Assembly: GCA_016839785.1 (NCBI GenBank)
Contig: JAEOTQ010000114.1
Span: 1-52,303 of the forward strand
Direction: 5' to 3'
Length of the DNA stretch: 52,303 bases
From: Candidatus Hodarchaeota archaeon
Lineage (GTDB): Archaea > Asgardarchaeota > Heimdallarchaeia > Hodarchaeales > Hodarchaeaceae
Shown: in pieces, positions 2,080 through 18,792 of the stretch
How the letters are laid out: the number at the start of each line of letters is the position of its first letter
Numbering within the stretch: position 1 is the first letter of the stretch
Notes under the pieces: model-generated
Database searches by the model: none
The model's input: the letters and a program-made list of their open reading frames with translations, nothing else
What the model was told of the DNA's origin: nothing
Translations under genes and position numbers: made by a program

Positions 2080-2141
2080 AGTTTTTTAATGAGCTAATTC
2101 CACTAAGATCTAATTTATTTCGATATTTAGGGTTGAAAATA

Positions 2142-3275
2142 ATGTCTGAATGGGATTTAGTTCTTTATACAGATGATAAACAGAAAGAAGTTTACAATAA
2201 ATTAAAACTATCTGACAAAAAGTTGTCTGCTGCAGGCCAACATGGAAAAGCGACAATGCTTGTCGACAATGAAGGGAAAGAATGGCTCCTAAAGGTGTTT
2301 TCTCATATTATTGACTTTGATGTAAAAAAAGTGTCAGATTTAGATATAGATATTCAAGATACACCTGAAAAAAGTCGAGAGCGTCTTCATCTATGGCGAG
2401 TTTTGAATGAAATTACCGCTTCGCGTCTCGGAAGACGGATACACTTAAATGTACCAGAATCACATCTAATTTGTTCGGGAAAAGTCGCCAAATTCGCTCT
2501 TAAATCATCTACAATCTTGAAAGAGGAAGACGTAGTAGTTTTGGATGAAGAGGAGGAGGATGGAGAAACAGCGGAAGAATTTTACAATTTATCAGAACGA
2601 GAGATAGGATCATTAACTACTTCAGATCGGTTTGAAGAAATTTTAGCAAAAAGAAGTAGTCGCAAGAAAGCTGTAGATGTATTGGCGATTCTCCAAGAAA
2701 AAATTCCTAATAGTCGAAATATAGATGAGTACTTAGATGATCAAAAAGCAGATTTGGATGGAGCGTTTGCTGCAATACAAAATATCGATGATGCTTTTCT
2801 ATTATTACCTTTCGATATTTGGTTAAATGATCCTGATCGAAATGCTGGTAACTATTTAGTTCAAATGGACAAAAGCAATAAAGCTTCCCAAATATGGGGA
2901 ATTGACTACGAAATGTGGTCATTTGGAAGTGATATTTGGATGGAAGAGGATAACGTAACTCAAGGTAGGAGTTACTTAACAGCCATTATTCACCCGAAAA
3001 GCCATATTTTTGATTCTCGCGTTAATCAAACCTTCTATCGAATAAGAATGCTACAAGATGAAGAAATCATCCAAATGACAAAAGCTCCTAAATTAGCCTG
3101 CAAGTTTTTTGAATATCATATAAACAAAGGCAATTTACATTCAGACGAAAGGGAAAAATTAAAGCATGTTGAAGTTAATCTTGAAGATTTCCTCATCGAA
3201 TCACGACCGAGGTCAGATAAACTTAGTGAAATTATAGCTCGTCAAATAGGGCTTCCAAAAGACTTCAAAACTTAA
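2142..3275 (+). CDS. HipA/PI3-4-kinase-like protein kinase
   Basis: WLLK, NEITASRLG, FDIWLNDPDRNAGNYLV (catalytic DRxxxN loop) and IWGIDYE motifs, plus an acidic insert. ATG at 2142; the ORF track starts at TTG 2133. Confidence 0.7.
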   Translation: MSEWDLVLYTDDKQKEVYNKLKLSDKKLSAAGQHGKATMLVDNEGKEWLLKVFSHIIDFDVKKVSDLDIDIQDTPEKSRERLHLWRVLNEITASRLGRRIHLNVPESHLICSGKVAKFALKSSTILKEEDVVVLDEEEEDGETAEEFYNLSEREIGSLTTSDRFEEILAKRSSRKKAVDVLAILQEKIPNSRNIDEYLDDQKADLDGAFAAIQNIDDAFLLLPFDIWLNDPDRNAGNYLVQMDKSNKASQIWGIDYEMWSFGSDIWMEEDNVTQGRSYLTAIIHPKSHIFDSRVNQTFYRIRMLQDEEIIQMTKAPKLACKFFEYHINKGNLHSDEREKLKHVEVNLEDFLIESRPRSDKLSEIIARQIGLPKDFKT

Positions 3276-3300
3276 GATAATCTTCCTTAAGATCGAAGAC

Positions 3301-4482
3301 TTAGCTTTCATTATCAATCTTCAATAGGTTCAGAGTCTTTAAAGCCATCATATATTCTTCATTTGTCGGAATAACTAGTACTCCAACCTTTGATTCTTCG
3401 GATGAAATTATCTCCTCTTCATCTCCTTTCGCATTTTCATTTTTGGAAGTGTCTAGAAATGCACCGACACTGTCTATACCTCTTACTACCAGATCTCGAA
3501 AGTAAGGAGATCTTTCCCCTATCCCACCTGTGAATACAAGAGCATCTAATCCACCTAAGGTGATAAAATAAGCTCCAATATACTTCTGTATCCGATACAC
3601 CGCCATTTGGACAGCCAATTGTGCAGCATGGTTCCCCTCCTGGGAACTAATCTGAATCTCTCGCATATCTCGAAATTTTCCAGTTATTCCTAGCAACCCA
3701 CTCTTATAATTAAGTTCTTGATCAATTTGGTTTACTGACATTTCCTCTGATCGCATCATCGCTGGAATGAGGCCGGGGTCAATGTCCCCAGAACGAGTAC
3801 CCATAATAAGTCCTTCGAGTGGTGTTAATCCCATACTTGTATCAATTGACTTTCCATTGTGTAGAGCTGTGATTGATGCCCCATTACCAAGGTGGAGGAC
3901 AATCATTCTCTTAGAATTTGCTGATCCTAATATATTGAATGTTCTACTTGTTACATATTCTACGGATGTACCATGAAACCCGTATCTTCGAAAAGAGTAT
4001 TCTTCATACCACTTTTTCGGAATTGCATAGCGATAGGCATATTCTGGAATAGTACTGTGAAAAGATGTATCAAAAACTGCTATATGTGGAATCTCAGGAA
4101 GATGATTCCTACAAGCACGAATTCCGATAAGATTCGAGGGATTATGGAGTGGAGCCAACTCTGAGAGCTTTTCTATTTGATTTTCAACCTCAAGGTTGAT
4201 AATTACCTCTTTACGGAATTTTTCTCCTCCATGTACAACCCTATGAGCTACTGCATTAATATCTAACAGATTAAAAAGGTTTAATACATATTTTATTGCA
4301 TCCTCATGGTTTTTACAATCAATTTGTTCTTTAATCTCTGTTCCTTCACTATTGTGGGAAATATGTGGTTCTTTAAGACCAATTCTTTCAACTAATCCCT
4401 TTGCAGAAAGATGTCCATCCTTCATTCGATATATCGAATATTTAAGAGAGGAAGAACCGGAGTTGATTGTTAGAATATTCAA
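3301..4482 (-). CDS. ackA: Acetate kinase
   Basis: INSGSSSLKY, HRVVHGG, APLHNP, VFDTSFH, RYGFHGTS, HLGNGAS, MGLTPLEG, GTRSGDIDP, FTGGIGE, PTNEE. Confidence 0.97.
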   Translation of the reverse strand: MNILTINSGSSSLKYSIYRMKDGHLSAKGLVERIGLKEPHISHNSEGTEIKEQIDCKNHEDAIKYVLNLFNLLDINAVAHRVVHGGEKFRKEVIINLEVENQIEKLSELAPLHNPSNLIGIRACRNHLPEIPHIAVFDTSFHSTIPEYAYRYAIPKKWYEEYSFRRYGFHGTSVEYVTSRTFNILGSANSKRMIVLHLGNGASITALHNGKSIDTSMGLTPLEGLIMGTRSGDIDPGLIPAMMRSEEMSVNQIDQELNYKSGLLGITGKFRDMREIQISSQEGNHAAQLAVQMAVYRIQKYIGAYFITLGGLDALVFTGGIGERSPYFRDLVVRGIDSVGAFLDTSKNENAKGDEEEIISSEESKVGVLVIPTNEEYMMALKTLNLLKIDNES

Positions 4483-4492
4483 TCAAAACCCT

Positions 4493-5941
4493 CTAGTATG
4501 TACCTGCTTTTGAATCAGTTCCTTTAACAATAGCTATGGAAGCAGAAGCTCCTATTCGAGTCGCTCCTGCGTTAATCATCTGTTCCGCAATTTCATGTGT
4601 TCTTATTCCTCCAGCAGCCTTTACACCCATTTCAGGACCTACTGTTTTTCGCATAAGTGCAATATCCTCCACTAACGCGCCTGCAGTACTGAATCCTGTT
4701 GATGTCTTGACGAAGTCAGCTCCGCTTAATTTGGTAAGTAGACTCCCTTTCACAATTTGTTCCTTAGTAAGCAAAGCCGTTTCAAGAATAACTTTAACTA
4801 TTGCTTTCCCAGCAGCAGCATTCACAACAGCTTGTATATCCTGGCGGACAAGGTCATCATTTCCCGATTTTAACGCTCCAACATTAATGACCATATCTAC
4901 CTCCTCCGCGCCATTTGCTATGGCATCACGAGTTTCTATTGCCTTTACAGTGGGAGTTGTAGCTCCTAAAGGAAAACCTATAACAGTACATACTTTTACT
5001 GAGCTACCCTTCAAATATTTTGCGGCTTTCGAAACATTCGTTGGATTAATACAAACTGATGCGAAATTATACATAGCTGCTTCTTCGCATAACTTTTTAA
5101 TCTCCTCATCCGTCGCATCCGCCCGTAAGTTGGTATGATCGATATGCTGAGCTAAATCTATATCGTATCCATTAATCCCTGTTTCAGAGGTAATTCGAGT
5201 GGCTCCTCCATTGACTAATGCCTTGACAGCAACTTGAGATTTCCCATCTACTCCAATATCTTTTCCCGCAGTACCAATGGTATAGGAACGATTGGATGTT
5301 GTCGGAGTGTAAGGGGATGGTTCTTGATCAGACAAATTATGAACATTTACCATTCTTATTCCCATGGATGTCAACTGATCGATAACCCCGTCAATTTTTC
5401 GATTCATAGCTGGGGGCACTTGATCTTTCTCAATTTGACAGCAGTAGATAGAGTCTTGAGCAGCAATAACAGGTTTCCCATACATTAATCCAAAAACCAT
5501 TGTTATTGTGCCTAGAGAGTCAGCGTTTAATGCTGCAACCTTTGCTGCAGTATTTAAGGATAGAATAGGAACATATATTACATCAATCCGTCCTAAAATG
5601 TTGTCAAAATACTCCTCAGAATATTCAGTAATAATAGTTGCTCCTTCAGAAACTTTTCTGACATCAGGCATTCCAATAATTTTGATAGCTGCCCGAGTCA
5701 TGACTATGTACGTATTTGTATACGTTTTTGATATAATTTCTATTTGACGCATGACTTCCTCTATTTCTCGATTTCCACCACATAATAGAATTAACGCTGA
5801 GTTTCCTGAAGATATTCTATAGTTAATTTTCTTGTTAGAAGTCTGTAGATTCTGATTTGTTTGTCTCGCAGAGGAAAGATTATCTTGGTCCAATTTTCGC
5901 ATAACTTCTTCTGTTATTTTTTGAATCATCTCATTACTCAA
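4493..5941 (-). CDS. deoC: Deoxyribose-phosphate aldolase fused to an N-terminal encapsulation peptide and a flavoprotein-like domain
   Basis: C-terminal ~220 aa: [38 protein letters not shown] (Schiff-base Lys), [17 protein letters not shown]. Middle domain resembles HFCD/PF02441 ([10 protein letters not shown]...GKPVIAA). Confidence 0.92.
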
Positions 5942-5960
5942 TTCTACACCTTCCTTTTCT

Positions 5961-6251
5961 TTAACTTAATTCAGTCTGTTTACCGTCTACTTCGACATAA
6001 TCCACAACACCTACTATCAAAGCATCAACGGCAGCGTTATCATCATTCATTATACCCCGGATAGAATTTCCTTCTCGGATTACGAGGACGCAATCCCCTA
6101 TTCCAGCTCTTGATACGTCTAATGCGATGATAGAGGCGTCAGTAAACTGTCCTTTCAAATCTATCGGACGTACTACAAGTATTTTTCCATTTTCATGACT
6201 TTTAGTCTTTATTGGGGCGACGACATTCCCGATGACTTTAGCTAGAATCAT
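5961..6251 (-). CDS. BMC-P pentamer shell protein (EutN/CcmL family)
   Basis: [12 protein letters not shown]...[19 protein letters not shown]...[10 protein letters not shown]. Confidence 0.95.
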
Positions 6252-6790
6252 TCTGATTCACTCTCTGTAAGCTTAGGTTCGATTTCCTTTATCTTTTTTG
6301 TTTTTTTCTTCCTAGTAGCTCTTTTTCTAGGTTTGGACTTAGGAATTGGTTTTGATATCTCATCTACCTCAGTAGGCGATATTTTAGATTTAGGTATTGG
6401 TTTTGAAGTTATGTCGATTTCCGTGTCAATCTCTTTCTTTTTAGAAAACTGATCTAGAGGTTTTATTGTTGGTGGAGGAGCTTTCTTCTTTTTCCTCTGC
6501 TGAGGTTTTCGTTTCGCACTCTTTGTCACATAATATTCCTCTATATACCCTACAATACACTCATCGATCGGTACAAGCTCTTTAGGAAAGACAATAGCCG
6601 CTTCCTTTTTACTGACAACATACACAATATCTCCTGGTCCAGCGGTTTCAATTCCATCAGCAGCAACATAAGGGTTCCCTAAGGGTTGAAGATTATCATC
6701 CAAGCCCTGTACTACTAGAAGTCTTAAAGAATCGAGACCTGGGTCTTTCGTTGTAGCAACTACATTTCCTATTACTTTACCAAGTTTCAT
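6248..6790 (-). CDS. BMC-P pentamer shell protein (EutN/CcmL) with ~90-aa basic C-terminal tail
   Basis: [16 protein letters not shown]...VAADGIETAGPGDIV...PIDECIVGYIE, then a Lys/Arg/Pro-rich tail. Start placed at ATG 6790. Confidence 0.92.
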   Translation of the reverse strand: MKLGKVIGNVVATTKDPGLDSLRLLVVQGLDDNLQPLGNPYVAADGIETAGPGDIVYVVSKKEAAIVFPKELVPIDECIVGYIEEYYVTKSAKRKPQQRKKKKAPPPTIKPLDQFSKKKEIDTEIDITSKPIPKSKISPTEVDEISKPIPKSKPRKRATRKKKTKKIKEIEPKLTESESE

Positions 6791-6794
6791 GTTA

Positions 6795-7253
6795 TCACGC
6801 TGACTTAAGATATTTCGTTTCAATTTCAGAAATTTTATTCACTCTTGTTTCGTGCCTTCCTCCACCAAATGGAGTAGTTAACCAGATTTTTACAATATTC
6901 TGTGCTATACCAGGACCAATAACTCTTGCTCCTAAGGTCAGAACGTTGGAATTATTGTGTTCACGGGCAGAATTGGCAGTAAATTCATCAGTGCACGGAG
7001 TCGCCCTAATACCTTTGATTTTATTTGCCACAATCGCGCTAGCCACACCTGTTCCATCTATAAGTATGCCAACAGATTCTAACGAGACAGAAACAGTCTG
7101 TGCAACTAACAATGCAATGTCAGGATAATCTACAGGATCTGTAGAGTAACACCCATAATCTGACACTTCGTACCCCATTCCTTTAAGGAATTTAATCAGA
7201 TCATTCTTTAGGTGAAATCCACCATGATCGGATCCAATAATAATTTTCTTCAT
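6795..7253 (-). CDS. rpiB: Ribose-5-phosphate isomerase B (RpiB/LacA/LacB family)
   Basis: IGSDHGG, VDYPD, ANKIKGIRA, AREHNNSNVLTLGARV, FGGGRH..RV. Confidence 0.95.
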   Translation of the reverse strand: MKKIIIGSDHGGFHLKNDLIKFLKGMGYEVSDYGCYSTDPVDYPDIALLVAQTVSVSLESVGILIDGTGVASAIVANKIKGIRATPCTDEFTANSAREHNNSNVLTLGARVIGPGIAQNIVKIWLTTPFGGGRHETRVNKISEIETKYLKSA

Positions 7254-7279
7254 TTGACTTCAGCTTGTATAATTAGAGT

Positions 7280-7825
7280 TTACAGCAACGTTTTTACTAA
7301 ATCTGGATGAGGAGCAGGAATAATAGCTATAGATAATACTAAGCCTTCGCCCTTTACACGATTAACTCCCGCATCTACAGCTGCTCGTACAGCACCAACA
7401 TCTCCTGTTAAGACGACGAATGCCTTACCACCAATAGCACGACTCATTCGGATTTCGATTAAACGTACCTGTGCACTTTTAACAGCCTCATCACCCACCA
7501 TTATGGCTGTAGGAGCGGAATATGTTTCAACTACTCCTATTGCACCGACCTCATCAATACCAGTCGAACCTGCAATTGCTAGGAATACCTCAGGATGAAT
7601 ATTGGGTATTACTGTATAATTTACTAGTGTTTCACCAGCGATCTCACTTCCAGCAATTAAGGAGCTTTTAACAGCTGCAACTGCTCCCTGAATTATTATC
7701 AAATATTTCCCAGGGCATACTGGTGAGGCAAATAATAGCTCCACATCAGCAGTTTTGACTATTGTGTCTGCGCTCAATATACCACGAGCAATTACATTTG
7801 TTTCTAGAACTCCTATAGCACGCAT
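7280..7825 (-). CDS. pduT: BMC-T tandem shell protein, PduT-like
   Basis: Two BMC domains: AIGVLE...VCPGKY...G.VAAVK and AIGVVET...IGGKAFVVLTGDVGAVRAAV...IPAPHPDL. The PduT Fe-S Cys is present. Confidence 0.93.
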   Translation of the reverse strand: MRAIGVLETNVIARGILSADTIVKTADVELLFASPVCPGKYLIIIQGAVAAVKSSLIAGSEIAGETLVNYTVIPNIHPEVFLAIAGSTGIDEVGAIGVVETYSAPTAIMVGDEAVKSAQVRLIEIRMSRAIGGKAFVVLTGDVGAVRAAVDAGVNRVKGEGLVLSIAIIPAPHPDLVKTLL

Positions 7826-7870
7826 TTGATTTTCCTCTGTATTCGTTATAAGTGATGGAAGTAGTGAGCA

Positions 7871-7893
7871 TTAGCTGCCATTCTTGCAGCTAA
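7871..7893 (-). promoter_or_regulatory. Intergenic stem-loop just downstream of the main BMC-H gene
   Basis: TTAGCTGC-CATTCTT-GCAGCTAA: perfect 8-bp stem with a 7-nt loop, 8 bp after the stop codon at 7902. Confidence 0.55.
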
Positions 7894-7901
7894 ATTTCCA
7901 T

Positions 7902-8180
7902 TCAGCCTTTCTTGGGGAGAATGCTCTCAACCTCATCATGAGGTCGAGGGATTACATGAGCTGAAGTTAGTTCACCAACTTTTCTTGCAGCAACTGCGCC
8001 AGCCTCAACAGAAGCTTTAACAGCACCAACGTCACCTCTAACCATCACAGTTACGAAACCACCGCCAATAACTTCGCGTCCCATTAGATGAACGTTCGCT
8101 GCTTTCACCATTGCGTCAGCTGCTTCAATAGATGCAACTAACCCTTTTGTTTCTATTAATCCAAGTGCTTCTTTAGCCAT
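7902..8180 (-). CDS. BMC-H hexamer shell protein (EutM/PduA-like)
   Basis: [26 protein letters not shown]...[23 protein letters not shown]...HVIPRPH; canonical sequence. Confidence 0.98.
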
Positions 8181-8206
8181 TTTTTATTTCACCAATTTTT
8201 TATTTT

Positions 8207-9532
8207 TTATTTTGTCTTTTCAATGACAATTTCTTGTCCAATATGTCGGATAACTCCACTAATACTAGCATGAATTACCGCGCCTAGCGACCCATCAGGG
8301 ATCTTCCCAATGAGCGCTCCTTTTTCTACAGTCTCTCCTACTTTCACAATAGGAATAGCAGGATCACCGATATGTTGCTTGAGAGGTATAGAGACTTGTT
8401 TAACCTGTATTTTCCGTTTTTTAATTGGACAATCATGATCATAATTGAGTAAATCCAATCTTGATATTAGTCTCTTCACAGGTAGCTTTCGATATTTCCT
8501 CTCAGGATGAATCGATAGTACTTTCCGAGTATGAGTATTTTTTAACCCCTCCCCTCTCAATTGCCCTTTTACTTCTGTCATCATTTTACATGGATCTAAA
8601 CCCATAGGGCATCCATAGTATGTACAGGCTCCACATTCCACGCAGAGAAATGTTCCAGTCATATATTCAGGCCTTTCAGGAGCTCCCCATGCTATCCCTC
8701 GCATGACCTTATCAGGATATAATTCATGACCTAGTAAATATCTAGGGCATACTTCTGTACATAATTGACAGCGTATGCAAGCAGCCTTGGTAACTATTAC
8801 CTTAGATGAAATTCGTTCATTTTTCATCCTCACCACAAAATGATCCTCTGGTAAAACGATTACTCCGGAGGTTAACTTTGTAATAGGCTTTTTAGGATCA
8901 ATAATTCTACCCATCATTGGTCCGTTGATTAACACTTGATAGTCATCAATAGTGGCTCCTCCAGCGGCTTTGATAGTATCCAAGATCGAAGTACCAATTG
9001 GGAACTCCATAGTTGAGGGATTTTTTACTGCGCCTGTCACTGTTACATATCTAGACACGATTGGTTTCCCTTCAGAAGCTTCAGCAAGATTTATCAATGT
9101 ATATACATTATTCACCACAACCCCTATATCAAGTGGAAGTCCACTTTCAGGAATTATCTTTCCTAAGGCTTCGTAAACTAGAACATGTTCATCTCCAGCA
9201 GGATAAACATCTTCCAAAAGGAAAATCTCTATACGAGAATCAGCTTTAATCGCTTGTGTAAGTTTTTTAATTGCATTTTTGTATTTTCTCTTTACAGCAA
9301 TGATTCCCCTCTTTGCCCCTGTGGCTTTCATCCCTAATTGTAGTCCATGTACTAGTTTTTCAGGGTAAACTTTCATTAATTGCTGATCAACCCTTAACAG
9401 AGGTTCACATTCAGCTGCATTTACGATATAAGTTTGAACTTTCGCAGAAAGTTTCACGTGAGTGGGAAATCCAGCTCCGCCTGCTCCAACTATACCGGAA
9501 TTGCGTGCCATTTCTGCGATGGTTGAAGTCAA
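8207..9532 (-). CDS. pduS: PduS-like (RnfC-related) NADH/FMN-binding, SLBB and 2x[4Fe-4S] oxidoreductase
   Basis: GIVGAGGAGFPTHVK, NAAECEPLL, YPAGDE, GPMMG, CIRCQLCTEVCP, CVECGACTYYGCP, PLKQHIG, IHASISG. Confidence 0.92.
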   Translation of the reverse strand: MTSTIAEMARNSGIVGAGGAGFPTHVKLSAKVQTYIVNAAECEPLLRVDQQLMKVYPEKLVHGLQLGMKATGAKRGIIAVKRKYKNAIKKLTQAIKADSRIEIFLLEDVYPAGDEHVLVYEALGKIIPESGLPLDIGVVVNNVYTLINLAEASEGKPIVSRYVTVTGAVKNPSTMEFPIGTSILDTIKAAGGATIDDYQVLINGPMMGRIIDPKKPITKLTSGVIVLPEDHFVVRMKNERISSKVIVTKAACIRCQLCTEVCPRYLLGHELYPDKVMRGIAWGAPERPEYMTGTFLCVECGACTYYGCPMGLDPCKMMTEVKGQLRGEGLKNTHTRKVLSIHPERKYRKLPVKRLISRLDLLNYDHDCPIKKRKIQVKQVSIPLKQHIGDPAIPIVKVGETVEKGALIGKIPDGSLGAVIHASISGVIRHIGQEIVIEKTK

Positions 9533-9559
9533 TTAATTTAGCCTCTTCTTTTTATAACT

Positions 9560-10987
9560 CTAAATTATTCTAAACGCATCTACAAGAACACATCTTCTTT
9601 GACGTGTAAACGTTCTCGCAGATGTTATTCCTTCACCTGTTGGACCTGCTATCGTCATTGTCGTAAATCCTTCTCCTCCAAACCCGATCCCTGCTAATGA
9701 GGGAGCATTTTTTACGAATATAGTTGTCTCAATATTTTTTGCGACAAGACTCATATTGCCAACAGAATCACTCCACATCATAGCTGTATGTTTAAATCCA
9801 TGTTCTGCTTTCTTGGCTTTTTGTAAAGCTTCTTCTATTGATTTAACTCGAACTATCGGTAACACAGGCATCAGCATTTCAGATATTACAAAGGGATGCT
9901 CGTCATCAGGTACTTCGGCAATTATTAGCTTAATATTATCACTGACCTGAATGCCAATTCCCTCAAGAATCACTTTTGCATCTTTACCGATGAAGTCCCT
10001 ATTTACAATCGGAAATCTTCCTTTTTTCCCAGTGAATACAAGATTAGCTAATTGAATAATCTGATCTCCTGTAATCTCGTAGGCACCATAATTCTTCATT
10101 TCGGCTTTCAATCGATCAGTAATGCTATCAAATGCAAAAACTTCTTTTTCCACGATACAAACAATATTATTATCAAAACTTGCACCCTCTACAATCCCTC
10201 TTGCTGCTTTTTGAATATTTGCAGTATCGTCAACGATCACAGGCGGATTTCCTGGACCTGCACAGACGGTTTTCTTTCCAGATTGCATGGCAGCCTTTAC
10301 GACTGCGCTTCCTCCAGTCACTACAAGACACCTGATTTTTTTATGTGTCATAAGTGTTTGAGCTGACTCAATTGTAGGTGAAATTGTGGATGTGAGTACA
10401 TTTTCTGGCCCTCCAGCTTCAAGAATTGCCCTATTCAATAACCTTACCGCTTCATTACTCGCACGTTTTGCTGAAGGATGAGGGTTAAAAACCACACTGT
10501 TTCCTGCAGTGACCATTGATATTCCATTATTGATCACGGTTGCAGTCGGATTTGTAGAAGGTGTTATTGATCCAATTACTCCATATGGAGCCATTTCTAC
10601 AAGAGTTAGTCCCTTATCACCTGTCCAAGTGTTTGGAACTAAATCTTCCAGTCCTGGGGTTTTACGTGCGCATAGTAAATTTTTAGCTACTTTATCCTCT
10701 AATCGGCCAAGATTGGTTTCTTGAACTGCTAGTTCAGCTAGATATCGGGCGTGCTTGATTACGCCTTCACGCATAGATTGAATAATGTCTTTTCGTTTTT
10801 CGAGCGAGAGATCCATTAAGGCTATTTGGCTCTTCTCAGCTGCTTCAATAGCTTGTTCTATATCCTGAAAAATGCCTCCGCCTGCAGTTGCTGGAAGATT
10901 TTCTAATCCCGAATAAACTTGATAGGCACGAATTTTTTGTACAACAGTATTGACAATCTTGGCAATTTGTTGTTCATCATATGTCAT
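9560..10987 (-). CDS. CoA-acylating aldehyde dehydrogenase (EutE/PduP family) with N-terminal encapsulation peptide
   Basis: PYGVIGSITPSTNPT, VTGG, AGPGNPP, FDNNIVCIVEKE (catalytic Cys), EMLMPVLP, PTGEGITSARTFTRQRRC. Confidence 0.96.
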   Translation of the reverse strand: MTYDEQQIAKIVNTVVQKIRAYQVYSGLENLPATAGGGIFQDIEQAIEAAEKSQIALMDLSLEKRKDIIQSMREGVIKHARYLAELAVQETNLGRLEDKVAKNLLCARKTPGLEDLVPNTWTGDKGLTLVEMAPYGVIGSITPSTNPTATVINNGISMVTAGNSVVFNPHPSAKRASNEAVRLLNRAILEAGGPENVLTSTISPTIESAQTLMTHKKIRCLVVTGGSAVVKAAMQSGKKTVCAGPGNPPVIVDDTANIQKAARGIVEGASFDNNIVCIVEKEVFAFDSITDRLKAEMKNYGAYEITGDQIIQLANLVFTGKKGRFPIVNRDFIGKDAKVILEGIGIQVSDNIKLIIAEVPDDEHPFVISEMLMPVLPIVRVKSIEEALQKAKKAEHGFKHTAMMWSDSVGNMSLVAKNIETTIFVKNAPSLAGIGFGGEGFTTMTIAGPTGEGITSARTFTRQRRCVLVDAFRII

Positions 10988-11036
10988 TTAATTACCCACA
11001 CTTGCACATGTTCAGTTTCTTTTATTATACAAAATA

Positions 11037-11327
11037 TTATTTTCTGTATGTTTCCTTTCCATTTATTTGAATAAAATCGATTATGGCTTGAATTGTTGCA
11101 TCAGTTGGACGATCTTTTGTCATTGCAGTTAAACGAGAGGAACTTCCTGTAACAACTAAGACAAGTTCCTCTTCTCCTGCACCTACAGCATCAATTGCTA
11201 CGAATGGAGAACTCTCAGGTTTCAGATCAGTCATATCCACTGGTTGGACAATGAGAAGGGTAAAACCTTTAATGCCTGCATCTTTTTCTGTGCTAACTAC
11301 ATTTCCAATAACTTTACATACTTTCAT
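11037..11327 (-). CDS. BMC-P pentamer shell protein (EutN/CcmL family)
   Basis: MKVCKVIGNVVSTEKD...VAIDAVGAGEEELVLVVTGSSSR...PTDATIQAIID. Confidence 0.96.
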   Translation of the reverse strand: MKVCKVIGNVVSTEKDAGIKGFTLLIVQPVDMTDLKPESSPFVAIDAVGAGEEELVLVVTGSSSRLTAMTKDRPTDATIQAIIDFIQINGKETYRK

Positions 11328-11338
11328 GTTTTTATCAC

Positions 11339-12058
11339 CTAAATCTTTATAATTTTAATATCAAGAAGTTTGGCTTTTTCTTGGGCTAATGGTGTTATAA
11401 CTGTGGAATGAGGTACAAAAATTTCATGAGATTTTCCTTGTAAGCTTTCTAAATAATCTTCTGTTATTAAATCTGGTATTGATGGGGTATGTTTCATGAA
11501 TTGATCAGCCAAATCTTCAACATTAACCAATCTAAATCCCATTTCAATTAAAATTGATAACCGTCTACTTAATTCATTTGTTAACATACCAGATGGTCCA
11601 TAATCAAAAGTTAAATCCGTTGGAGGAAATGGTGTTGCTATATAGACTGGAATTTTGGATAATAATCCTTGGAGTAATAAATTGACGGTAGGATTCGAAT
11701 CTTCTAGACTAGTAACTTTTTTAGCAATTTCAAAACTAAAAGCACCATACATTATGGATTCAAGATCATTATAAAATTTTAAACAGAAATCTCCCGTTGG
11801 ATTAACAATGATATCCATAGTAGGAGTTGAACTAGCTCGTGATGTGAATTTCAAGGCTTCGTCTATCTCTTTTCTAGTCCATACAAGAATCTTCATATTT
11901 TTTTGAGCTAATCTGATAAGAGTTACAAATAATTCTTCCAACCCTTGGCCCATATGGGTTAATATTCCTAATACACTATAGGGGCCTCGTGTCTGGTTAC
12001 TTGTGAGAACATTCCGAACTTGTTGAGATACAAGTGATTCGAGTTCTTTCTCATCCAT
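11339..12058 (-). CDS. BMC-associated flavoprotein-like/PduM-like protein with N-terminal encapsulation peptide
   Basis: N-terminal amphipathic helix (ELESLVSQQVRNVL), degenerate flavoprotein-like core, and a C-terminal LITED...VITPLAQEKAK motif that I recognise from BMC-locus proteins. Confidence 0.65.
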   Translation of the reverse strand: MDEKELESLVSQQVRNVLTSNQTRGPYSVLGILTHMGQGLEELFVTLIRLAQKNMKILVWTRKEIDEALKFTSRASSTPTMDIIVNPTGDFCLKFYNDLESIMYGAFSFEIAKKVTSLEDSNPTVNLLLQGLLSKIPVYIATPFPPTDLTFDYGPSGMLTNELSRRLSILIEMGFRLVNVEDLADQFMKHTPSIPDLITEDYLESLQGKSHEIFVPHSTVITPLAQEKAKLLDIKIIKI

Positions 12059-12074
12059 AACCTTTACCTTCTAT

Positions 12075-12386
12075 TCAATCTCTACCAGGATCTTCGTGAA
12101 CACTTTGAGTAGGTAGTCTAACTTTTTCTATTAATTCAATAGTTACATTATCAGGCCGTGGAATTACATTGGTTAGAATTCCACAGGAAATTCGCCGTAA
12201 TTGTTTTTTTGCCGCATTGATTGCTTCATTAACCGCGGCTACCTCGCCTTCAATGATTACTATAACTAAACCACCAGAAACTCGTTTTAATGATATTAAA
12301 TTGATATTAGCCGCTTTTAACGCTGTATCTGTGGCCACAATTGCTCCAATACGGCCACGTGTCTCCATAAATCCTAGAGCATCCAT
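12075..12386 (-). CDS. BMC-H hexamer shell protein (divergent)
   Basis: MDALGFMETRG...DTALKAANI...GGLVIVIIEGEVAAVNEAI...VIPRPD. ATG 12386 is preceded by AGGTGA. Confidence 0.93.
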   Translation of the reverse strand: MDALGFMETRGRIGAIVATDTALKAANINLISLKRVSGGLVIVIIEGEVAAVNEAINAAKKQLRRISCGILTNVIPRPDNVTIELIEKVRLPTQSVHEDPGRD

Positions 12387-12391
12387 AAGTA

Positions 12392-14248
12392 TCACCTGAA
12401 GGGGGAATATGACTTCTCATCAAAATCCGAAATGAGCGTTCCCATGTCTCCTGTGTTCAATGCGAGGGCATTTCCCTCGTCTAAGTCTAAGTGTAACTCC
12501 AAATTATAGTCTGGATGAACTCTTACTTTAACTTCATCTAATATACCTGCACGTGTTCCTGGAAATTTAACTGCCACCATCTGTTTGTTAGATACGTTTA
12601 ATCTCTGTGAATCAGTTGGTGACATATGAATATGTCGTGCGGCAAATATTACTCCCTTGTCTAATGTAATTGCACCCTTTGGTCCCATAACATTGATTCC
12701 AGGTGTCCCCTCTAAATCCCCCGAATGTCTTGTAGGAGGGTTAATTCCTAATACATACCCATCGCTACGTGAAATTTCGATTTGTGTTTCATCACGAAAA
12801 GGGCCAAGAACTCTTACTCCGTATATTGCCCGTTTTGGACCAACAAGATCAACAACCTCCTCACAAGCAAACTCTTTACGCTGTGATAAGGAGTTAAGAG
12901 GATGCAACTTCTCTTTTTCTCCAAAAAGTTTGTGAAAATCAGTTTTAGTTAAATGAATATGCCGAGCTGATAAAGAAACTGGGATTAGCTGATCACTAAG
13001 GACTTTAGTTAATTCCTGAGTAATGATCTGCTTAACTAATTTGTCATTATTTACAACCGTATTTCTTTGTGTGATTGGTGTAAATTCACATCCTAATGGG
13101 CCACAGTATCTTCCGACATATTCCGCAGAGGGTCGATATATCACGGGTTTAATGGTTGGGGTTTCTGGGTATTTCTCTTCTAATACATGTGCGGTCCATC
13201 CAGCAACTCTAGATGTTGTAAAAATCGGAGTAAAAAGTTCTACAGGTATATTAAGACTTGTATACACTGTAGCCCCGTATAAATCCACATTAGGATAGAT
13301 ATCTCGATTTTTTCGCTTTTTAAATTCCTTTTGAGTTATATCAACCATCTGATTTGTTGTCTCGAACATCCATTGAGCAAACCCACCGTTTTTTTTCACA
13401 AGTTCTGCGGCCATTTCCTTTAATATATTAGCTCTTGGATCTATTGTTTTATAAATCGCATGTCCCATTCCCATAATTCGTTTGCCTTTATCAAAACGAT
13501 CTTTTACCCAATCTTCAACATTAGACATCTTTTTAATTTCTAAAAGGCTCTCATATACAAGATGATTTGCGCCTCCATGATATTTTCCAGATAAGGAACC
13601 TATTGCTCCTGAAATTGAAGCATATAGATCGGCTCCAGTGGAGGCTATTACTCTTGCAGTAAAAGTAGATGCATTGAAAGAATGTTCAGCATGAAGTACG
13701 AGTGTAACATCAAAAATTCGAGCCTCTTCCTTTGATGGTGTTTTTCCATGAAGCATGTACAGGAAATTTGACGCATAAGCAAGATTTTTGTTAGGGGATA
13801 TTGGTTCGTTATTGTTTCTTATACGTTCCCATGCCGTGACAATAATAGGTAGAAGAGCAATAATCCTAATAGCAATGTTACGATCAGTTTCTCTTGTTTC
13901 TGTTTCAACTTCAGCATCATATCCGGCTAAGAGGGCAAGCGATGACTGAAGGACACTCATTGAAGGGGTATTTTTTGCAGTTTTCTGTAAATGAATGAGT
14001 AATTCTGGAGGAAGCTCTTGATTTGATTTTATTGTAGACTCAAAGACTTTCAATTGATCAAAAGAAGGTAGTTTTCCATATAAGAGTAAGTATACTACTT
14101 CTTCGTAAGTTGAATTCCTTGCTAGATCCTTAATATCATACCCTCGGATGAAAAGATTTCCTTTTTCTCCTTCAATCAGGCATATATTTGTATCCGCAAC
14201 CTCAACACCACGAAGTCCAGTCGATTTGTGGCTATGTTCTTCAAGCAT
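12392..14248 (-). CDS. Citrate synthase fused to an encapsulation peptide and PduL-type phosphotransacylase
   Basis: aa ~1-395 citrate synthase (GLRGV, LHAEHSFNASTF, HGGAN, MGMGHAIYK.DPR, YPNVD, RVAGWTAH). aa ~422-618 PduL (VSLSARHIHL, VRVLGPFR, QIEISRSD, RHIHMSP, LHLDLDEGNA). Single uninterrupted ORF. Confidence 0.93.
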   Translation of the reverse strand: MLEEHSHKSTGLRGVEVADTNICLIEGEKGNLFIRGYDIKDLARNSTYEEVVYLLLYGKLPSFDQLKVFESTIKSNQELPPELLIHLQKTAKNTPSMSVLQSSLALLAGYDAEVETETRETDRNIAIRIIALLPIIVTAWERIRNNNEPISPNKNLAYASNFLYMLHGKTPSKEEARIFDVTLVLHAEHSFNASTFTARVIASTGADLYASISGAIGSLSGKYHGGANHLVYESLLEIKKMSNVEDWVKDRFDKGKRIMGMGHAIYKTIDPRANILKEMAAELVKKNGGFAQWMFETTNQMVDITQKEFKKRKNRDIYPNVDLYGATVYTSLNIPVELFTPIFTTSRVAGWTAHVLEEKYPETPTIKPVIYRPSAEYVGRYCGPLGCEFTPITQRNTVVNNDKLVKQIITQELTKVLSDQLIPVSLSARHIHLTKTDFHKLFGEKEKLHPLNSLSQRKEFACEEVVDLVGPKRAIYGVRVLGPFRDETQIEISRSDGYVLGINPPTRHSGDLEGTPGINVMGPKGAITLDKGVIFAARHIHMSPTDSQRLNVSNKQMVAVKFPGTRAGILDEVKVRVHPDYNLELHLDLDEGNALALNTGDMGTLISDFDEKSYSPFR

Positions 14249-14418
14249 CGTAAGGCCTTTTTATTTGAGCTTAGTTTTCAGTAGCAAAGGGTGAACTTGT
14301 ACTCCTTAAATACAATTTTGTGAATCGTCTGACGAATCATTTGGTCAATTTTATCTCAAACTAGCTGAATATCGATACCACTTAATCATGAGAGTTTTTT
14401 TGTACAATAGATAACCAA

Positions 14419-14439
14419 TATCACTATATATTAGTGATA
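14419..14439. promoter_or_regulatory. Inverted repeat (candidate operator) in the divergent region upstream of the BMC operon
   Basis: TATCACTA-TATAT-TAGTGATA, perfect 8-bp arms. Confidence 0.45.
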
Positions 14440-14480
14440 AGCTTTTTCTAGAAGAATACACTTAGCAGAGGTTCCATTCT

Positions 14481-15440
14481 TTGTTGATTAGAGGCTTTTC
14501 AGAATATACCACTTACAAATGTGCAGACTGCCATTTGAAATGCTGCGCCACTGAGTACGATCTGCCCCTCTATGGGTCAGAAAAACTTCATCTGTCTCAG
14601 AAATATTCAGAATATCAGTATTACTTTCAATCGACTAAAGAGGGAGACATTATTCTTCGGGGAAATTCATGTCCGTTCTTGACAAAGGGTGGACATTGTC
14701 AACTTCATACCACATCTCTGAAACCTCTCACATGCCAAATTTATCCTTTGTTGTTTTGGCGATTCAACCGAAATGATACTTTAATATCAATTAATCCCTG
14801 TCGGGGAAAAGGATTTCATTGGTACTCCACAAAAAACGCTAAGATTACCAAAGACTACATTGAACAGCTAATTCTAAAGACTGACAAATATTTTGATTCG
14901 TATTGGGGAGAAGAAATGGACAAAAATAATCCTTACGAAGGTATCTCCCCATCAAGGGTGGAAAAGCAAGTAAAATATTATAATCATACTTCTGAAGACC
15001 AATTATTGACGAAGATGGTATCCAACATTTCATCTTCCTCATATTCTCAATTTCTTCCATCTTTTCATGAAAAACCCAACGATTTGATGAAAAATGAGGT
15101 AATTAAGAAGTATCTCAATTCGGTTCTATCTTGGCTAGTTTGGAGTCCTGTAGGGTTACAATTGTCTATTGAGAATGCTCAACTTATATTTTCTATCGCT
15201 GCGTTTTGGTTGATTGAGCAAATAAATTTGGATCTTAATTCAAACACTTCATTCATAACAGATTCCATCTATATGGAGCAATTGTCCTCATTTTACGCTA
15301 GGTCCATTCTTCCATCCTTCTGGCTTAATATAATTTCTCAAAAGACAAACCAAGTATTATATTCTTTCGCGAAAAAAGTATACTTAGTCCTCACAGGAGA
15401 ACTCCCTCAGGAAGAGCTCCTTCAATTTCGCTCTTCTTGA
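14481..15440 (+). CDS. YkgJ-family (CxxCxxCC) cysteine-cluster protein
   Basis: CADCHLKCC, CPFL...CQLH...KPLTCQIYP, CRG. Confidence 0.8.
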   Translation: MLIRGFSEYTTYKCADCHLKCCATEYDLPLYGSEKLHLSQKYSEYQYYFQSTKEGDIILRGNSCPFLTKGGHCQLHTTSLKPLTCQIYPLLFWRFNRNDTLISINPCRGKGFHWYSTKNAKITKDYIEQLILKTDKYFDSYWGEEMDKNNPYEGISPSRVEKQVKYYNHTSEDQLLTKMVSNISSSSYSQFLPSFHEKPNDLMKNEVIKKYLNSVLSWLVWSPVGLQLSIENAQLIFSIAAFWLIEQINLDLNSNTSFITDSIYMEQLSSFYARSILPSFWLNIISQKTNQVLYSFAKKVYLVLTGELPQEELLQFRSS

Positions 15441-15528
15441 TAAGAATTGTTATCAAGAAAGTAAAACATTAAGAAGGAATTAGAAAAGAGAATAGAATGA
15501 CGAAGAATTGTAATACGAGTGAAATATT

Positions 15529-15711
15529 ATGGCAGGTAGTCACGGAAGCCTTACAAAAGCTGGAAAAGTACGAAATCAAACTCCTAAAGTTGAAGGACGT
15601 AAAAGAAAAGGATTAACACCAATCTTACGCAATAAAAAGAATTATATTAAGAGAATTGTAAAAGAAATGCCAGTAGGCCAGCCAGAATATCGTCAGGACA
15701 GACGAAGGTAA
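15529..15711 (+). CDS. rps30e: 30S ribosomal protein S30e (eS30)
   Basis: SHGSLTKAGKVRNQTPKV. Confidence 0.96.
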   Translation: MAGSHGSLTKAGKVRNQTPKVEGRKRKGLTPILRNKKNYIKRIVKEMPVGQPEYRQDRRR

Positions 15712-16944: not shown

Positions 16945-17042
16945 TGGTAGCGGCTGGAGGATTTGAACCATCCGATCTCGGGGTTTCGCAAGAATTCCTT
17001 CTTTATGAGCCCCGCGGGATAACCTAGCTACCCTAAGCCGCT
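16945..17042 (-). tRNA. Initiator tRNA-Met(CAT) with 19-nt intron at 37/38 (16985-17003) and encoded CCA
   Basis: Acceptor AGCGGCT/AGCCGCT with A1:U72, anticodon stem CGGGG/CCCCG, CT-CAT-A, TTCAAAT T-loop, terminal ACCA, BHB-like intron. Confidence 0.92.
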
Positions 17043-18489: not shown

Positions 18490-18792
18490 TTAAGCTCTTT
18501 GAAGTTCTGATCTTCTTGCTCTGGGTCGGTTACGTATCCATTTTTTCCCGCATTCACCACATGTAATTCGGATGTCAACTTTTTTTGTTGTTTTTGATGT
18601 CATATTTCGTGATGCAATTGGTCGTCTTGAATAACGCCCATGATTTCCAATTCGTGAAGTCCATCGAGCCATTCGTCGGCTTCCTTGCCCCATTCCACCG
18701 CCTCGTTGTTTTGCTTTTTCAAGTTTCACTGATTGAACAGTATGTTTATTGCAGTGTGGACAGAATGTTCGCATTTTTGCGGGAATTTTCAC
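18490..18792 (-). CDS. rpl44e: 50S ribosomal protein L44e (eL42)
   Basis: MKIPAKMRTFCPHCNKHT...KTTKKVDIRITCGECGK. Confidence 0.96.
   Translation of the reverse strand: MKIPAKMRTFCPHCNKHTVQSVKLEKAKQRGGGMGQGSRRMARWTSRIGNHGRYSRRPIASRNMTSKTTKKVDIRITCGECGKKWIRNRPRARRSELQRA

Follow-up and report, generated by a model that had tools for sequence, protein, structure and literature searches.

A type I archaeal microcompartment operon in a Hodarchaeales archaeon, and an alternative cassette at the same site in its relatives

A block of 13 genes encoding the shell and enzymes of a microcompartment was characterized in a 52,303-nucleotide contig (JAEOTQ010000114.1, C69 in our numbering) of the Candidatus Hodarchaeota assembly GCA_016839785.1. 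The contig was analysed over its whole length and is referred to hereafter as the window; the genome to which it belongs spans 4.04 Mb in 248 contigs and is 84.5% complete with 3.4% contamination. We conclude, with a probability of about 90%, that the block is a native, vertically inherited Hodarchaeales operon encoding a sugar phosphate utilization (SPU) metabolosome of the kind described as type I archaeal microcompartment (AMC). The operon is a further member of that published class, and the finding is already known (Du et al., bioRxiv, November 2025, PMC12747264). Its genes encode three classes of bacterial microcompartment (BMC) shell protein (BMC-H, BMC-T and BMC-P), a deoxyribose-phosphate aldolase (DERA) with a flavoprotein-like N-domain (Flav-DERA), an aldehyde dehydrogenase (AldDH), a citrate synthase (CS) fused to PduL and a protein designated DUF:

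3301..4482, minus strand: AckA acetate kinase, last gene of the operon (PF00871, E 7e-136)
4493..5941, minus strand: Flav-like N-domain plus DERA, with a putative N-terminal amphipathic helix (TIGR00126, 287 bits; PF02441, E 0.004, below cut-off)
5961..6251, minus strand: BMC-P (P3) (PF03319, E 5.5e-20)
6248..6823, minus strand: BMC-P (P2) with a 95-aa Lys/Arg-rich C-terminal tail (PF03319 at residues 12-94)
6795..7253, minus strand: RpiB-like protein, Asp66 in place of the catalytic Cys (PF02502, E 1.8e-52)
7280..7825, minus strand: BMC-T, PduT-like tandem-domain protein with a CPGK motif (two PF00936 stretches; TIGR02526, E 1.7e-35, below cut-off)
7902..8180, minus strand: BMC-H, major type (PF00936, E 7e-29)
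8207..9532, minus strand: PduS-like/RnfC-like NADH-FMN-FeS oxidoreductase (PF01512, PF10531, PF13534, PF13375; TIGR01945)
9560..10987, minus strand: CoA-acylating AldDH with a putative N-terminal amphipathic helix (PRK15398, 660 bits)
11037..11327, minus strand: BMC-P (P1) (PF03319, E 2.9e-28)
11339..12058, minus strand: DUF, with a putative N-terminal amphipathic helix, a predicted HFCD/UbiX-fold domain and a small C-terminal domain with a TPLA motif (AlphaFold2 model and structure search)
12075..12395, minus strand: BMC-H, second, divergent type (PF00936, E 2e-22)
12392..14248, minus strand: CS-PduL fusion with a putative amphipathic linker helix, first gene of the operon (PF00285 and PF06130)

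The 13 open reading frames (ORFs) at 3301-14248 lie on the minus strand and are free of internal stops; neighbours either overlap by a few bases or lie no more than 76 bp apart. Gene families were assigned by Pfam and NCBIfam profile searches. Read from the operon start at 14248, the order is CS-PduL, BMC-H, DUF, BMC-P, AldDH, PduS/RnfC-like, BMC-H, BMC-T, RpiB-like, tailed BMC-P, BMC-P, Flav-DERA and AckA. A first-pass annotation, made from the sequence alone, had described 13 packed, co-oriented genes covering all three shell classes, and this was borne out: every ORF is present and uninterrupted, and PF00936 and PF03319 identify two BMC-H, one BMC-T and three BMC-P. From the enzyme set that it listed, AckA, the PduS-like protein and the acylating AldDH stand as described, and PduL and DeoC are present as domains of larger fusion proteins. 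Its claim of intact catalytic motifs and no frameshifts holds for the reading frames and for Cys277 of AldDH; it fails for RpiB, where Asp66 replaces the Cys. The gene at 11339-12058 (DUF) matched no Pfam or NCBIfam family. Among the 13 ORFs there is no match to PF00121 (triose-phosphate isomerase, TPI) or PF00596 (class II aldolase), and no third BMC-H.

The shell genes are assigned with wide margins. The two single-domain BMC-H proteins score 100 and 79 bits for PF00936 (cut-off 24.5), the three BMC-P proteins score 72-99 bits for PF03319 (cut-off 25), and the BMC-T, of 181 aa, matches PF00936 twice and carries CPGK at residue 37. The whole genome holds four PF00936 matches, every one on the operon contig. 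The major BMC-H (7902-8180) is 88-100% identical across the genus. The 95-aa tail of P2, a protein that probably starts at the Met at residue 12, contains 30 Lys and Arg against 13 Asp and Glu, together with 12 Pro. A heptad, helix-like pattern was recognized by sequence in N-terminal or linker stretches of AldDH, Flav-DERA, DUF and CS-PduL. For the orthologues of a relative, Candidatus Heimdallarchaeota archaeon B3_Heim, Du et al. (PMC12747264) report closed shells in vitro and in Escherichia coli, peptide-dependent recruitment of cargo, and binding of DNA and RNA by the P2 tail.

Of 111 Hodarchaeales genomes, 66 are described in the same preprint as having 'archaeal microcompartments'. As set out there, type I has two H, one Ts and three P shell proteins, a K/R-rich P2 tail of 36-137 aa, and a cargo of Flav+DERA, CS+PTAC (fused in some lineages), DUF, AldDH, RPI, MNdh (PduS-like) and AK; type II is marked by a third H, TPI or class II aldolase (PMC12747264). 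The type I AMC of B3_Heim (GCA_003144275) corresponds to the operon gene for gene, all 13 being arranged alike and bordered by the same flanks, and its proteins are 78-96% identical to those of the window. It also shares the K/R tail of P2, the CPGK of BMC-T, the Flav+DERA and CS+PTAC fusions and DUF, as far as the account in the preprint goes. B3_Heim is another species of the same genus, and the operon differs from its AMC in kind nowhere. The statement in the first-pass annotation that BMCs are described only from bacteria has thus been superseded (PMC12747264). Finding protein-shelled organelles among the archaea most closely related to eukaryotes is relevant to how early compartmentalized metabolism arose; Du et al. 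(2025) have already raised this point and put it in part to the test, and the present operon is a confirming instance. Two parts may be modestly new, the fold and paralogy of DUF and an either/or choice at the operon's chromosomal slot, both of which go beyond the main text of that preprint. The nativeness of the operon and its link to Myxococcota were checked here independently.

Bacterial SPU metabolosomes have in common with the operon a DERA, an RpiB-like protein with the Cys66-to-Asp change, an acylating AldDH, PduL, PduS and H, T and P shell genes. They are reportedly divided into types SPU1-7, by Sutter et al. in 2021. The operon differs from them in its archaeal host, the fusion of CS to PduL, the K/R-tailed pentamer and an RpiB-like protein lacking an N-terminal extension. 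Its DERA bears a flavoprotein-like domain of 260 aa, whereas an extension of ~70 residues is described for SPU6 (PMC11585597). Pdu and Eut metabolosomes share an AldDH near 4c3s and 5jfl, a PduT-like BMC-T, and PduS-like and PduL domains; here, in contrast, the signature enzyme is an aldolase, and genes for a diol or ethanolamine lyase and for B12 are absent.

The gene content suggests how the compartment might work. Two BMC-H, one PduT-like BMC-T and three BMC-P would build a polyhedral shell, into which putative amphipathic helices would target Flav-DERA, AldDH, DUF and CS-PduL. DERA would cleave deoxyribose-5-phosphate (dR5P), the presumed substrate, to glyceraldehyde-3-phosphate and acetaldehyde, and AldDH would convert the trapped acetaldehyde to acetyl-CoA and NADH. 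CoA would be recycled either by PduL, giving acetyl phosphate and then, through AckA, acetate and ATP, or by the citrate synthase half of the fusion, which would yield citrate; both fluxes are presumed. The PduS-like flavo-FeS protein would re-oxidize NADH, with electrons probably leaving by a putative Fe-S site of the BMC-T (CPGK), and the Lys/Arg-rich pentamer tail would bind nucleic acid. The route from dR5P through acetaldehyde, acetyl-CoA and acetyl phosphate to acetate and ATP had been proposed in the first-pass annotation; it matches what Du et al. deduce, and was incomplete in leaving out the citrate synthase branch.

Profile and structure-based comparisons support the assignments of the enzymes. 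The product of the 'DeoC' gene is a 482-aa protein with the aldolase at residues 263-472 (TIGR00126, 287 bits, cut-off 117), and this domain aligns with solved DERAs over the full aldolase length (best E 1.6e-83); its N-domain of ~260 aa has a weak, sub-threshold match to PF02441 (E 0.004). AldDH exceeds the PRK15398 cut-off (660 against 403 bits), is nearest to the solved structures 4c3s and 5jfl, and has Cys277, in the motif FDNNIVC, aligned to the Cys of both. 'PduL' corresponds to residues 423-597 (PF06130) of a 618-aa protein that carries citrate synthase (PF00285) at residues 11-368. The PduS-like protein scores 274 bits for TIGR01945 (cut-off 246) and has Cys clusters at 252-262 and 297-315. 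In the RpiB-like protein residue 66 is Asp, compared with Cys in 3he8, 3ph3 and 1o1x, 'ILIDGTG' being aligned to 'IVICGTG'. Dwyer et al. (2024; PMC11585597) report the Cys66-to-Asp change for all bacterial SPU RPIs, and describe a bacterial SPU orthologue that has negligible ribose-5-phosphate (R5P) isomerase activity and complexes with DERA. By analogy, the RpiB-like protein is probably not an isomerase. Of the traits that mark an SPU system, a DERA equivalog, the RpiB-like Asp66 and a BMC-type AldDH are all present.

A different reading of these enzymes is that the compartment handles a substrate other than, or besides, dR5P, with DERA as only one entry point; another sugar phosphate, for example, might be processed by the RpiB-like and flavoprotein-fold proteins. 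The Asp for Cys in the RpiB-like protein and the negligible R5P isomerase activity of its bacterial SPU orthologue (PMC11585597) would fit such a role, as would the two flavoprotein-fold domains without an assigned reaction, in DUF and at the N-terminus of DERA, and the citrate synthase fusion, for which a simple acetate route does not account. We nevertheless regard this reading as unlikely. Solved DERAs can be aligned closely with the whole of the DERA domain, which is also the sole DERA found in this 84.5%-complete genome. The cassette that occupies the same site in other genomes of the genus, described below, also combines a DERA with an acetaldehyde-oxidizing enzyme, which points to dR5P and acetaldehyde as the common theme.

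The first-pass annotation had proposed that archaeal genomes be searched for shell genes. PF00936 matches over cut-off were found in nine of the 400 genomes sampled across the phylum (85 genera), all nine belonging to the host's genus, and in none outside it. This genus, as grouped by the tool used, comprises 22 genomes, including the present one and B3_Heim; these are kin rather than independent samples, many are incomplete, and the trees used to compare them were quick single-gene trees. All nine BMC-bearing genomes, two of them closed chromosomes, carry the operon at one site. Among the BMC-less genomes the site was readable in 12, and in all of them it is bracketed by orf380 and the eS30 gene; one further genome (G021), with no orf380 match, was left out. 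Nine of the 12 hold a different cassette there, whole or in the part kept by the contig. This cassette B lies on the strand opposite orf380 and consists of a YkgJ-like gene, a gene for a 590-aa aldehyde:ferredoxin oxidoreductase (AOR; PF02730 and PF01314) and a gene for a free 289-aa DERA. The remaining three are G013 and G014, where the slot is empty (orf380-orf319-eS30), and G001, where a 233-aa DERA alone remains, on the operon's strand. In a DERA tree (27 rows) the G001 protein falls within the archaeal BMC-type clade (99), which marks it as what is left of a lost operon; the DERAs of cassette B make up a clade of their own, on a long branch (100). Across the 22 genomes an AOR orthologue (71-73% identity) is found in 10, a BMC shell in nine, neither in three and both in none. 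The genome analysed here has only paralogues of the cassette-B AOR, at no more than 41% identity.

The two states of the slot, the BMC operon (A) and cassette B, are intermingled among close relatives. In an RpoB tree (20 rows, 976 aa, quick; G000 and G008 absent), G007 (B) is sister to B3_Heim (G002; A) at 99% identity with a support of 97, G019 (B) groups with G010 and G020 (A) at 99, and G009 (A) groups with G018 and G011 (B) at 95. The starred branches of this tree imply at least four changes for each state, and the flank-gene tree concurs. The DNA of G007 and G002 is 94.6% identical as far as a point 49 bp short of the end of orf380, and 94.4% identical from 81 bp before eS30; between these sharp breakpoints lie 3,981 bp in G007 and 12,241 bp in G002. 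When G007 was compared with the window by blastn, identity extended to position 3226 and resumed at 15453, which delimits the slot and the features that it holds besides the operon:

3227..15452: variable cassette slot, occupied here by the BMC operon and a YkgJ-like gene (blastn comparison with G007)
14249..14480: putative divergent promoter, holding a pair of conserved inverted repeats (four close relatives aligned)
14481..15440, plus strand: YkgJ-family cysteine-cluster protein (PF03692, E 1.2e-5; atlas lead 0.91)

The cassette-B genes of G007 are 71-77% identical to those of the other B genomes, about the level of the flank proteins. The cassette was therefore not recently imported from any sampled distant lineage. 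On balance, we lean slightly towards the view that the BMC operon is one of two interchangeable 'alleles' of the slot, with a distribution shaped by repeated exchange of cassettes and not only by loss. Both cassettes would persist within lineages, and exchange probably took place by homologous recombination across the conserved flanks, besides outright deletions. Judged by their genes, both cassettes (A, 12.2 kb; B, 4.0 kb) would cleave deoxyribose phosphate and dispose of acetaldehyde, A within a shell using NAD and CoA, and B in the cytosol using ferredoxin and a tungsten-type AOR. One genus would thus have, in one slot, two solutions to the toxic acetaldehyde released from deoxyribose phosphate, an organelle or a ferredoxin-dependent oxidoreductase. 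If this is true, near relatives differing in cassette offer a natural paired comparison of what a microcompartment buys the cell, and the question shifts to what decides the choice of cassette, besides why the organelle was lost. Neither cassette stands out as ancestral: the AOR orthologue (at least 71% identity) is confined to this genus among 83 genomes of the class, as are the BMC shell genes among the 400 genomes of the phylum.

A YkgJ-family gene accompanies both cassettes, divergent from the BMC operon in A, and downstream of AOR and co-oriented with it in B (L135:3883-4779, minus strand). The YkgJ-family proteins are only 36-43% identical between genomes, and may be a shared redox partner or regulator. 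Association of cassette A with a haem-copper oxidase, and of B, whose AOR is oxygen-sensitive, with the lack of one, was considered and is unsupported: COX1 exceeded its cut-off in four of nine A genomes, two of 10 B genomes and all three of the remnant group.

The repeated loss or replacement of the operon, which 13 of the 22 genomes lack, and the deletion remnants in G001, G013 and G014 would also be expected if its genes, acquired in an old transfer, were now decaying or silent and built no organelle in this lineage. This is very improbable. The 13 ORFs have stayed intact in this genome and eight relatives, and the major BMC-H and AldDH are 88-100% and 76-95% identical, respectively, across the genus, which argues for purifying selection. 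Du et al. (PMC12747264) state that the cultured strain SC1 transcribes the locus. In a run labelled as metatranscriptomic RNA (X10), short contigs match five regions of the operon (Flav-DERA, PduS, DUF, CS-PduL and the boundary between BMC-H and CS-PduL) and differ from it at 1-10 positions per 151-275 nt; they are a weak hint of expression, and might come from a close relative or from DNA carry-over.

Nativeness of the operon is indicated by its conservation in related archaea. The host is an Asgard archaeon, as the first-pass annotation had proposed, and belongs to the Heimdall/Hodarchaeales group: its nearest named relatives are B3_Heim and several Candidatus Hodarchaeota metagenome-assembled genomes (MAGs), and the ribosomal protein genes beside the block are of archaeal/eukaryotic type. 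Relatives with 77-95% AldDH identity are titled Candidatus Hodarchaeota, Heimdallarchaeota or Promethearchaeota. They include B3_Heim, found by a CS-PduL scan (84% identity), and, found by AldDH scans, the Hodarchaeota MAGs YT2_004, YT1_021 and YT5_056, Promethearchaeota DZ3S.51 and the closed chromosomes CP070695 and CP070760. These relatives all keep the order of the 13 genes (12 without AckA), and the block is bordered by metG-orf380 at one end and by orf319-eS30-Zn-ribbon at the opposite end; in G009 and G020 the block is broken by scaffold or contig ends, with flanks identical in kind. The terminal AckA gene is absent from the operon in G010 (CP070695, L017) and G020 (L172), where Flav-DERA directly adjoins orf380. 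The 1.4-Mb 'single-contig' genome G009:C1 is a scaffold with N runs, in which two operon pieces (L167, L168) lie 317 kb apart, each with the expected flank. Across the relatives, the operon proteins (AldDH 76-95% identical across the genus) diverge in step with the flank proteins. The GC content of the block is 38.5%, compared with 36.1 ± 1.1% for 243 genome chunks (98th percentile), and its tetranucleotide distance lies at the 93rd percentile of the same chunks. In composition the block is slightly atypical, yet well away from the 62-75% GC of the Myxococcota loci. At the left junction, a Logan contig of run X1 covers 2124-3571 with no differences.

The block is native. A bacterial fragment misjoined to archaeal DNA would be in keeping with the otherwise bacterial occurrence of BMCs, the GC percentile of the block and a MAG in 248 contigs with an estimated contamination of 3.4%, but such a chimera is excluded for practical purposes because the same block with the same archaeal flanks recurs in eight other assemblies, several of them from named isolates and two of them closed chromosomes, and against it stand also the parallel divergence of block and flanks, the lack of any AldDH above 59% identity among the best 73 bacterial loci and 401 Myxococcota genomes, a nearest bacterial locus with 68% GC as against 38% here, and the Logan contig across 2124-3571.

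The bacterial relatives were surveyed by an AldDH pattern scan of 185,579 species genomes, which gave 393 relatives; the best 80 were kept, seven archaeal and 73 bacterial. Earlier patterns, specific to the archaeal AldDH, had given only two bacterial loci. The best 73 bacterial loci have AldDH identities of 29-59%, so the near-identity to a bacterium that would betray contamination is absent from them, and none contains a DUF or citrate synthase domain. Among 401 sampled Myxococcota genomes a BMC-type AldDH was found in 165, the best being that of G236 (56-59% identity). The G236 locus (contig C323, 8.4 kb) has the order DUF-P1-AldDH-PduS-T-P3-RpiB-P2-H-FlavDERA, near to the archaeal order, and its proteins are 26-78% identical to those of the operon; the GC content of the Myxococcota loci is 62-75%. 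This locus shares DUF and the Flav-DERA fusion with the operon, on a contig too short to judge CS, PduL and AckA. In the Chloroflexota MAG FK_Sedi_B_Bin.67 (L038), the DERA of an SPU locus matches residues 109-481 of Flav-DERA, with an aldolase domain 69% identical; a partial Flav-like extension of DERA therefore also occurs outside archaea and the Myxococcota genome G236.

In an AldDH tree of 102 rows (quick IQ-TREE; L069 dropped for a stop codon), all eight archaeal rows form one clade with an SH-aLRT of 100. Their sister is G236, inside a starred group with Bacillota. Du et al. (PMC12747264) infer transfer of the AMC from Myxococcota. Our tree agrees, independently, with an old transfer, in either direction, involving a Myxococcota lineage, and on these comparisons the operon does not appear to be a recent bacterial import.

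Several points weigh against the conclusion that the operon is native, vertically inherited and encodes a working SPU metabolosome. The data on shell assembly and cargo recruitment come from the B3_Heim orthologues and not from the proteins of this genome. Matching contigs in an RNA library are no proof of transcription. The canonical catalytic Cys is missing from the RpiB-like protein, which bears on its role and on the true range of substrates, and the citrate synthase half of CS-PduL falls slightly below the NCBIfam TIGR01800 cut-off (413 against 421 bits). The sister relation of G236 has an SH-aLRT of only 90, in a quick tree and with a branch length of 0.68. At the right junction, 14248-14481 is bridged by no single listed Logan piece, one ending at 14361 and another starting at 14426. 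Finally, metG, beside the block, contains an in-frame TGA at 406-408, and thus the assembly is not free of errors or variants.

The Logan data hold one further observation. In each of runs X1 and X2 one contig joins position ~2763 to 15463, skipping 12,699 bp, at a depth above that of the window's contigs. The short side of the joint has 21 letters, no repeat explains it, and its right end lies 10 bp from the 15453 breakpoint; its source may be a relative in the same community that carries another cassette, and the joint was not used as evidence.

The DUF protein (239 aa) belongs to a small family, with only 19 representative relatives at E ≤0.001 among 1.84 billion proteins. An AlphaFold2 model built from 23 aligned sequences (pLDDT 84) has a helix at residues 3-19, a predicted HFCD/UbiX/PPC-decarboxylase flavoprotein fold at residues 25-194, and a small C-terminal domain in which the TPLA motif is near-invariant. 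The ten best VIA matches to this model among 48,161 chains all belong to the HFCD/UbiX family (Z 10.6-13.6; 141-156 aligned residues, rmsd 2.8-4.0), and comprise DmrB, UbiX, HAL3, PPC decarboxylase, CoaBC, EpiD, TvaF, DpaB and MrsD. Foldseek likewise gave UbiX (probability 1.0, TM 0.5-0.59). By BLASTP, DUF matches the N-domain of Flav-DERA (E 3e-5, 30% identity over 105 residues). DUF is thus a free-standing paralogue of the Flav domain of Flav-DERA. The DUF sequence has no match to PF02441 even at E 10, and a profile of its family against PDB sequences gave no E under 0.76. The model thus assigns a flavoprotein fold to a protein outside the sequence family, and flavin binding by DUF is only putative because the PF02441 signature is undetected. 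HFCD proteins are oligomeric, as trimers or dodecamers. Since they form oligomers, a scaffold role is plausible for DUF and, by analogy, as likely as a redox role. A relation to PduM was considered: one distant homologue (P0003) matched PF15953 below the cut-off (22.6 against 27 bits), and PF15953 has no match at E 10 in this genome, nor any in nine other DUF homologues scanned; the lead is unsupported.

Upstream of the operon, the divergent intergenic region between CS-PduL and the YkgJ-like gene contains the inverted repeats AATCGTC-T-GACGA(A/T)T and TCACTAT-ATA-ATAGTGA, which sit in blocks conserved across four close relatives and are candidate operator and TATA elements.

The flanking genes are archaeal, as the first-pass annotation had recognized in placing metG on one side of the block and eS30, eL42 and an intron-containing tRNA-iMet on the other. 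The metG gene occupies 1-2079 (693 codons), adjoining that side of the block; eS30 lies at 15541-15678 and eL42 at 18499-18747. The TGA of metG falls in the conserved FLPDRF motif, the frame being otherwise uninterrupted, and a Leu codon stands there in all four relatives examined, which rules out conserved recoding (selenocysteine or read-through). It represents a sequencing or assembly error, a population variant or a pseudogene, error or variant being probable. The left border gene orf380 (2133-3275, plus strand) is present in 21 of the 22 genomes of the genus and matches no Pfam family at cut-off; its weak leads are HipA-like and PI3-PI4-kinase-like (PF07804, E 0.045, and atlas clusters). 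The tRNA (16948-17042, minus strand) escaped ARAGORN and a whole-window Rfam search at the gathering threshold, and emerged from a search of 4.8 kb with an E-value threshold. It is 95 nt long and scores 46 bits. Its anticodon, CAU, is followed by a 21-nt insert; its ends pair as A1-U72, and its anticodon stem has three G-C pairs at the foot. We take these features to fit an initiator tRNA.

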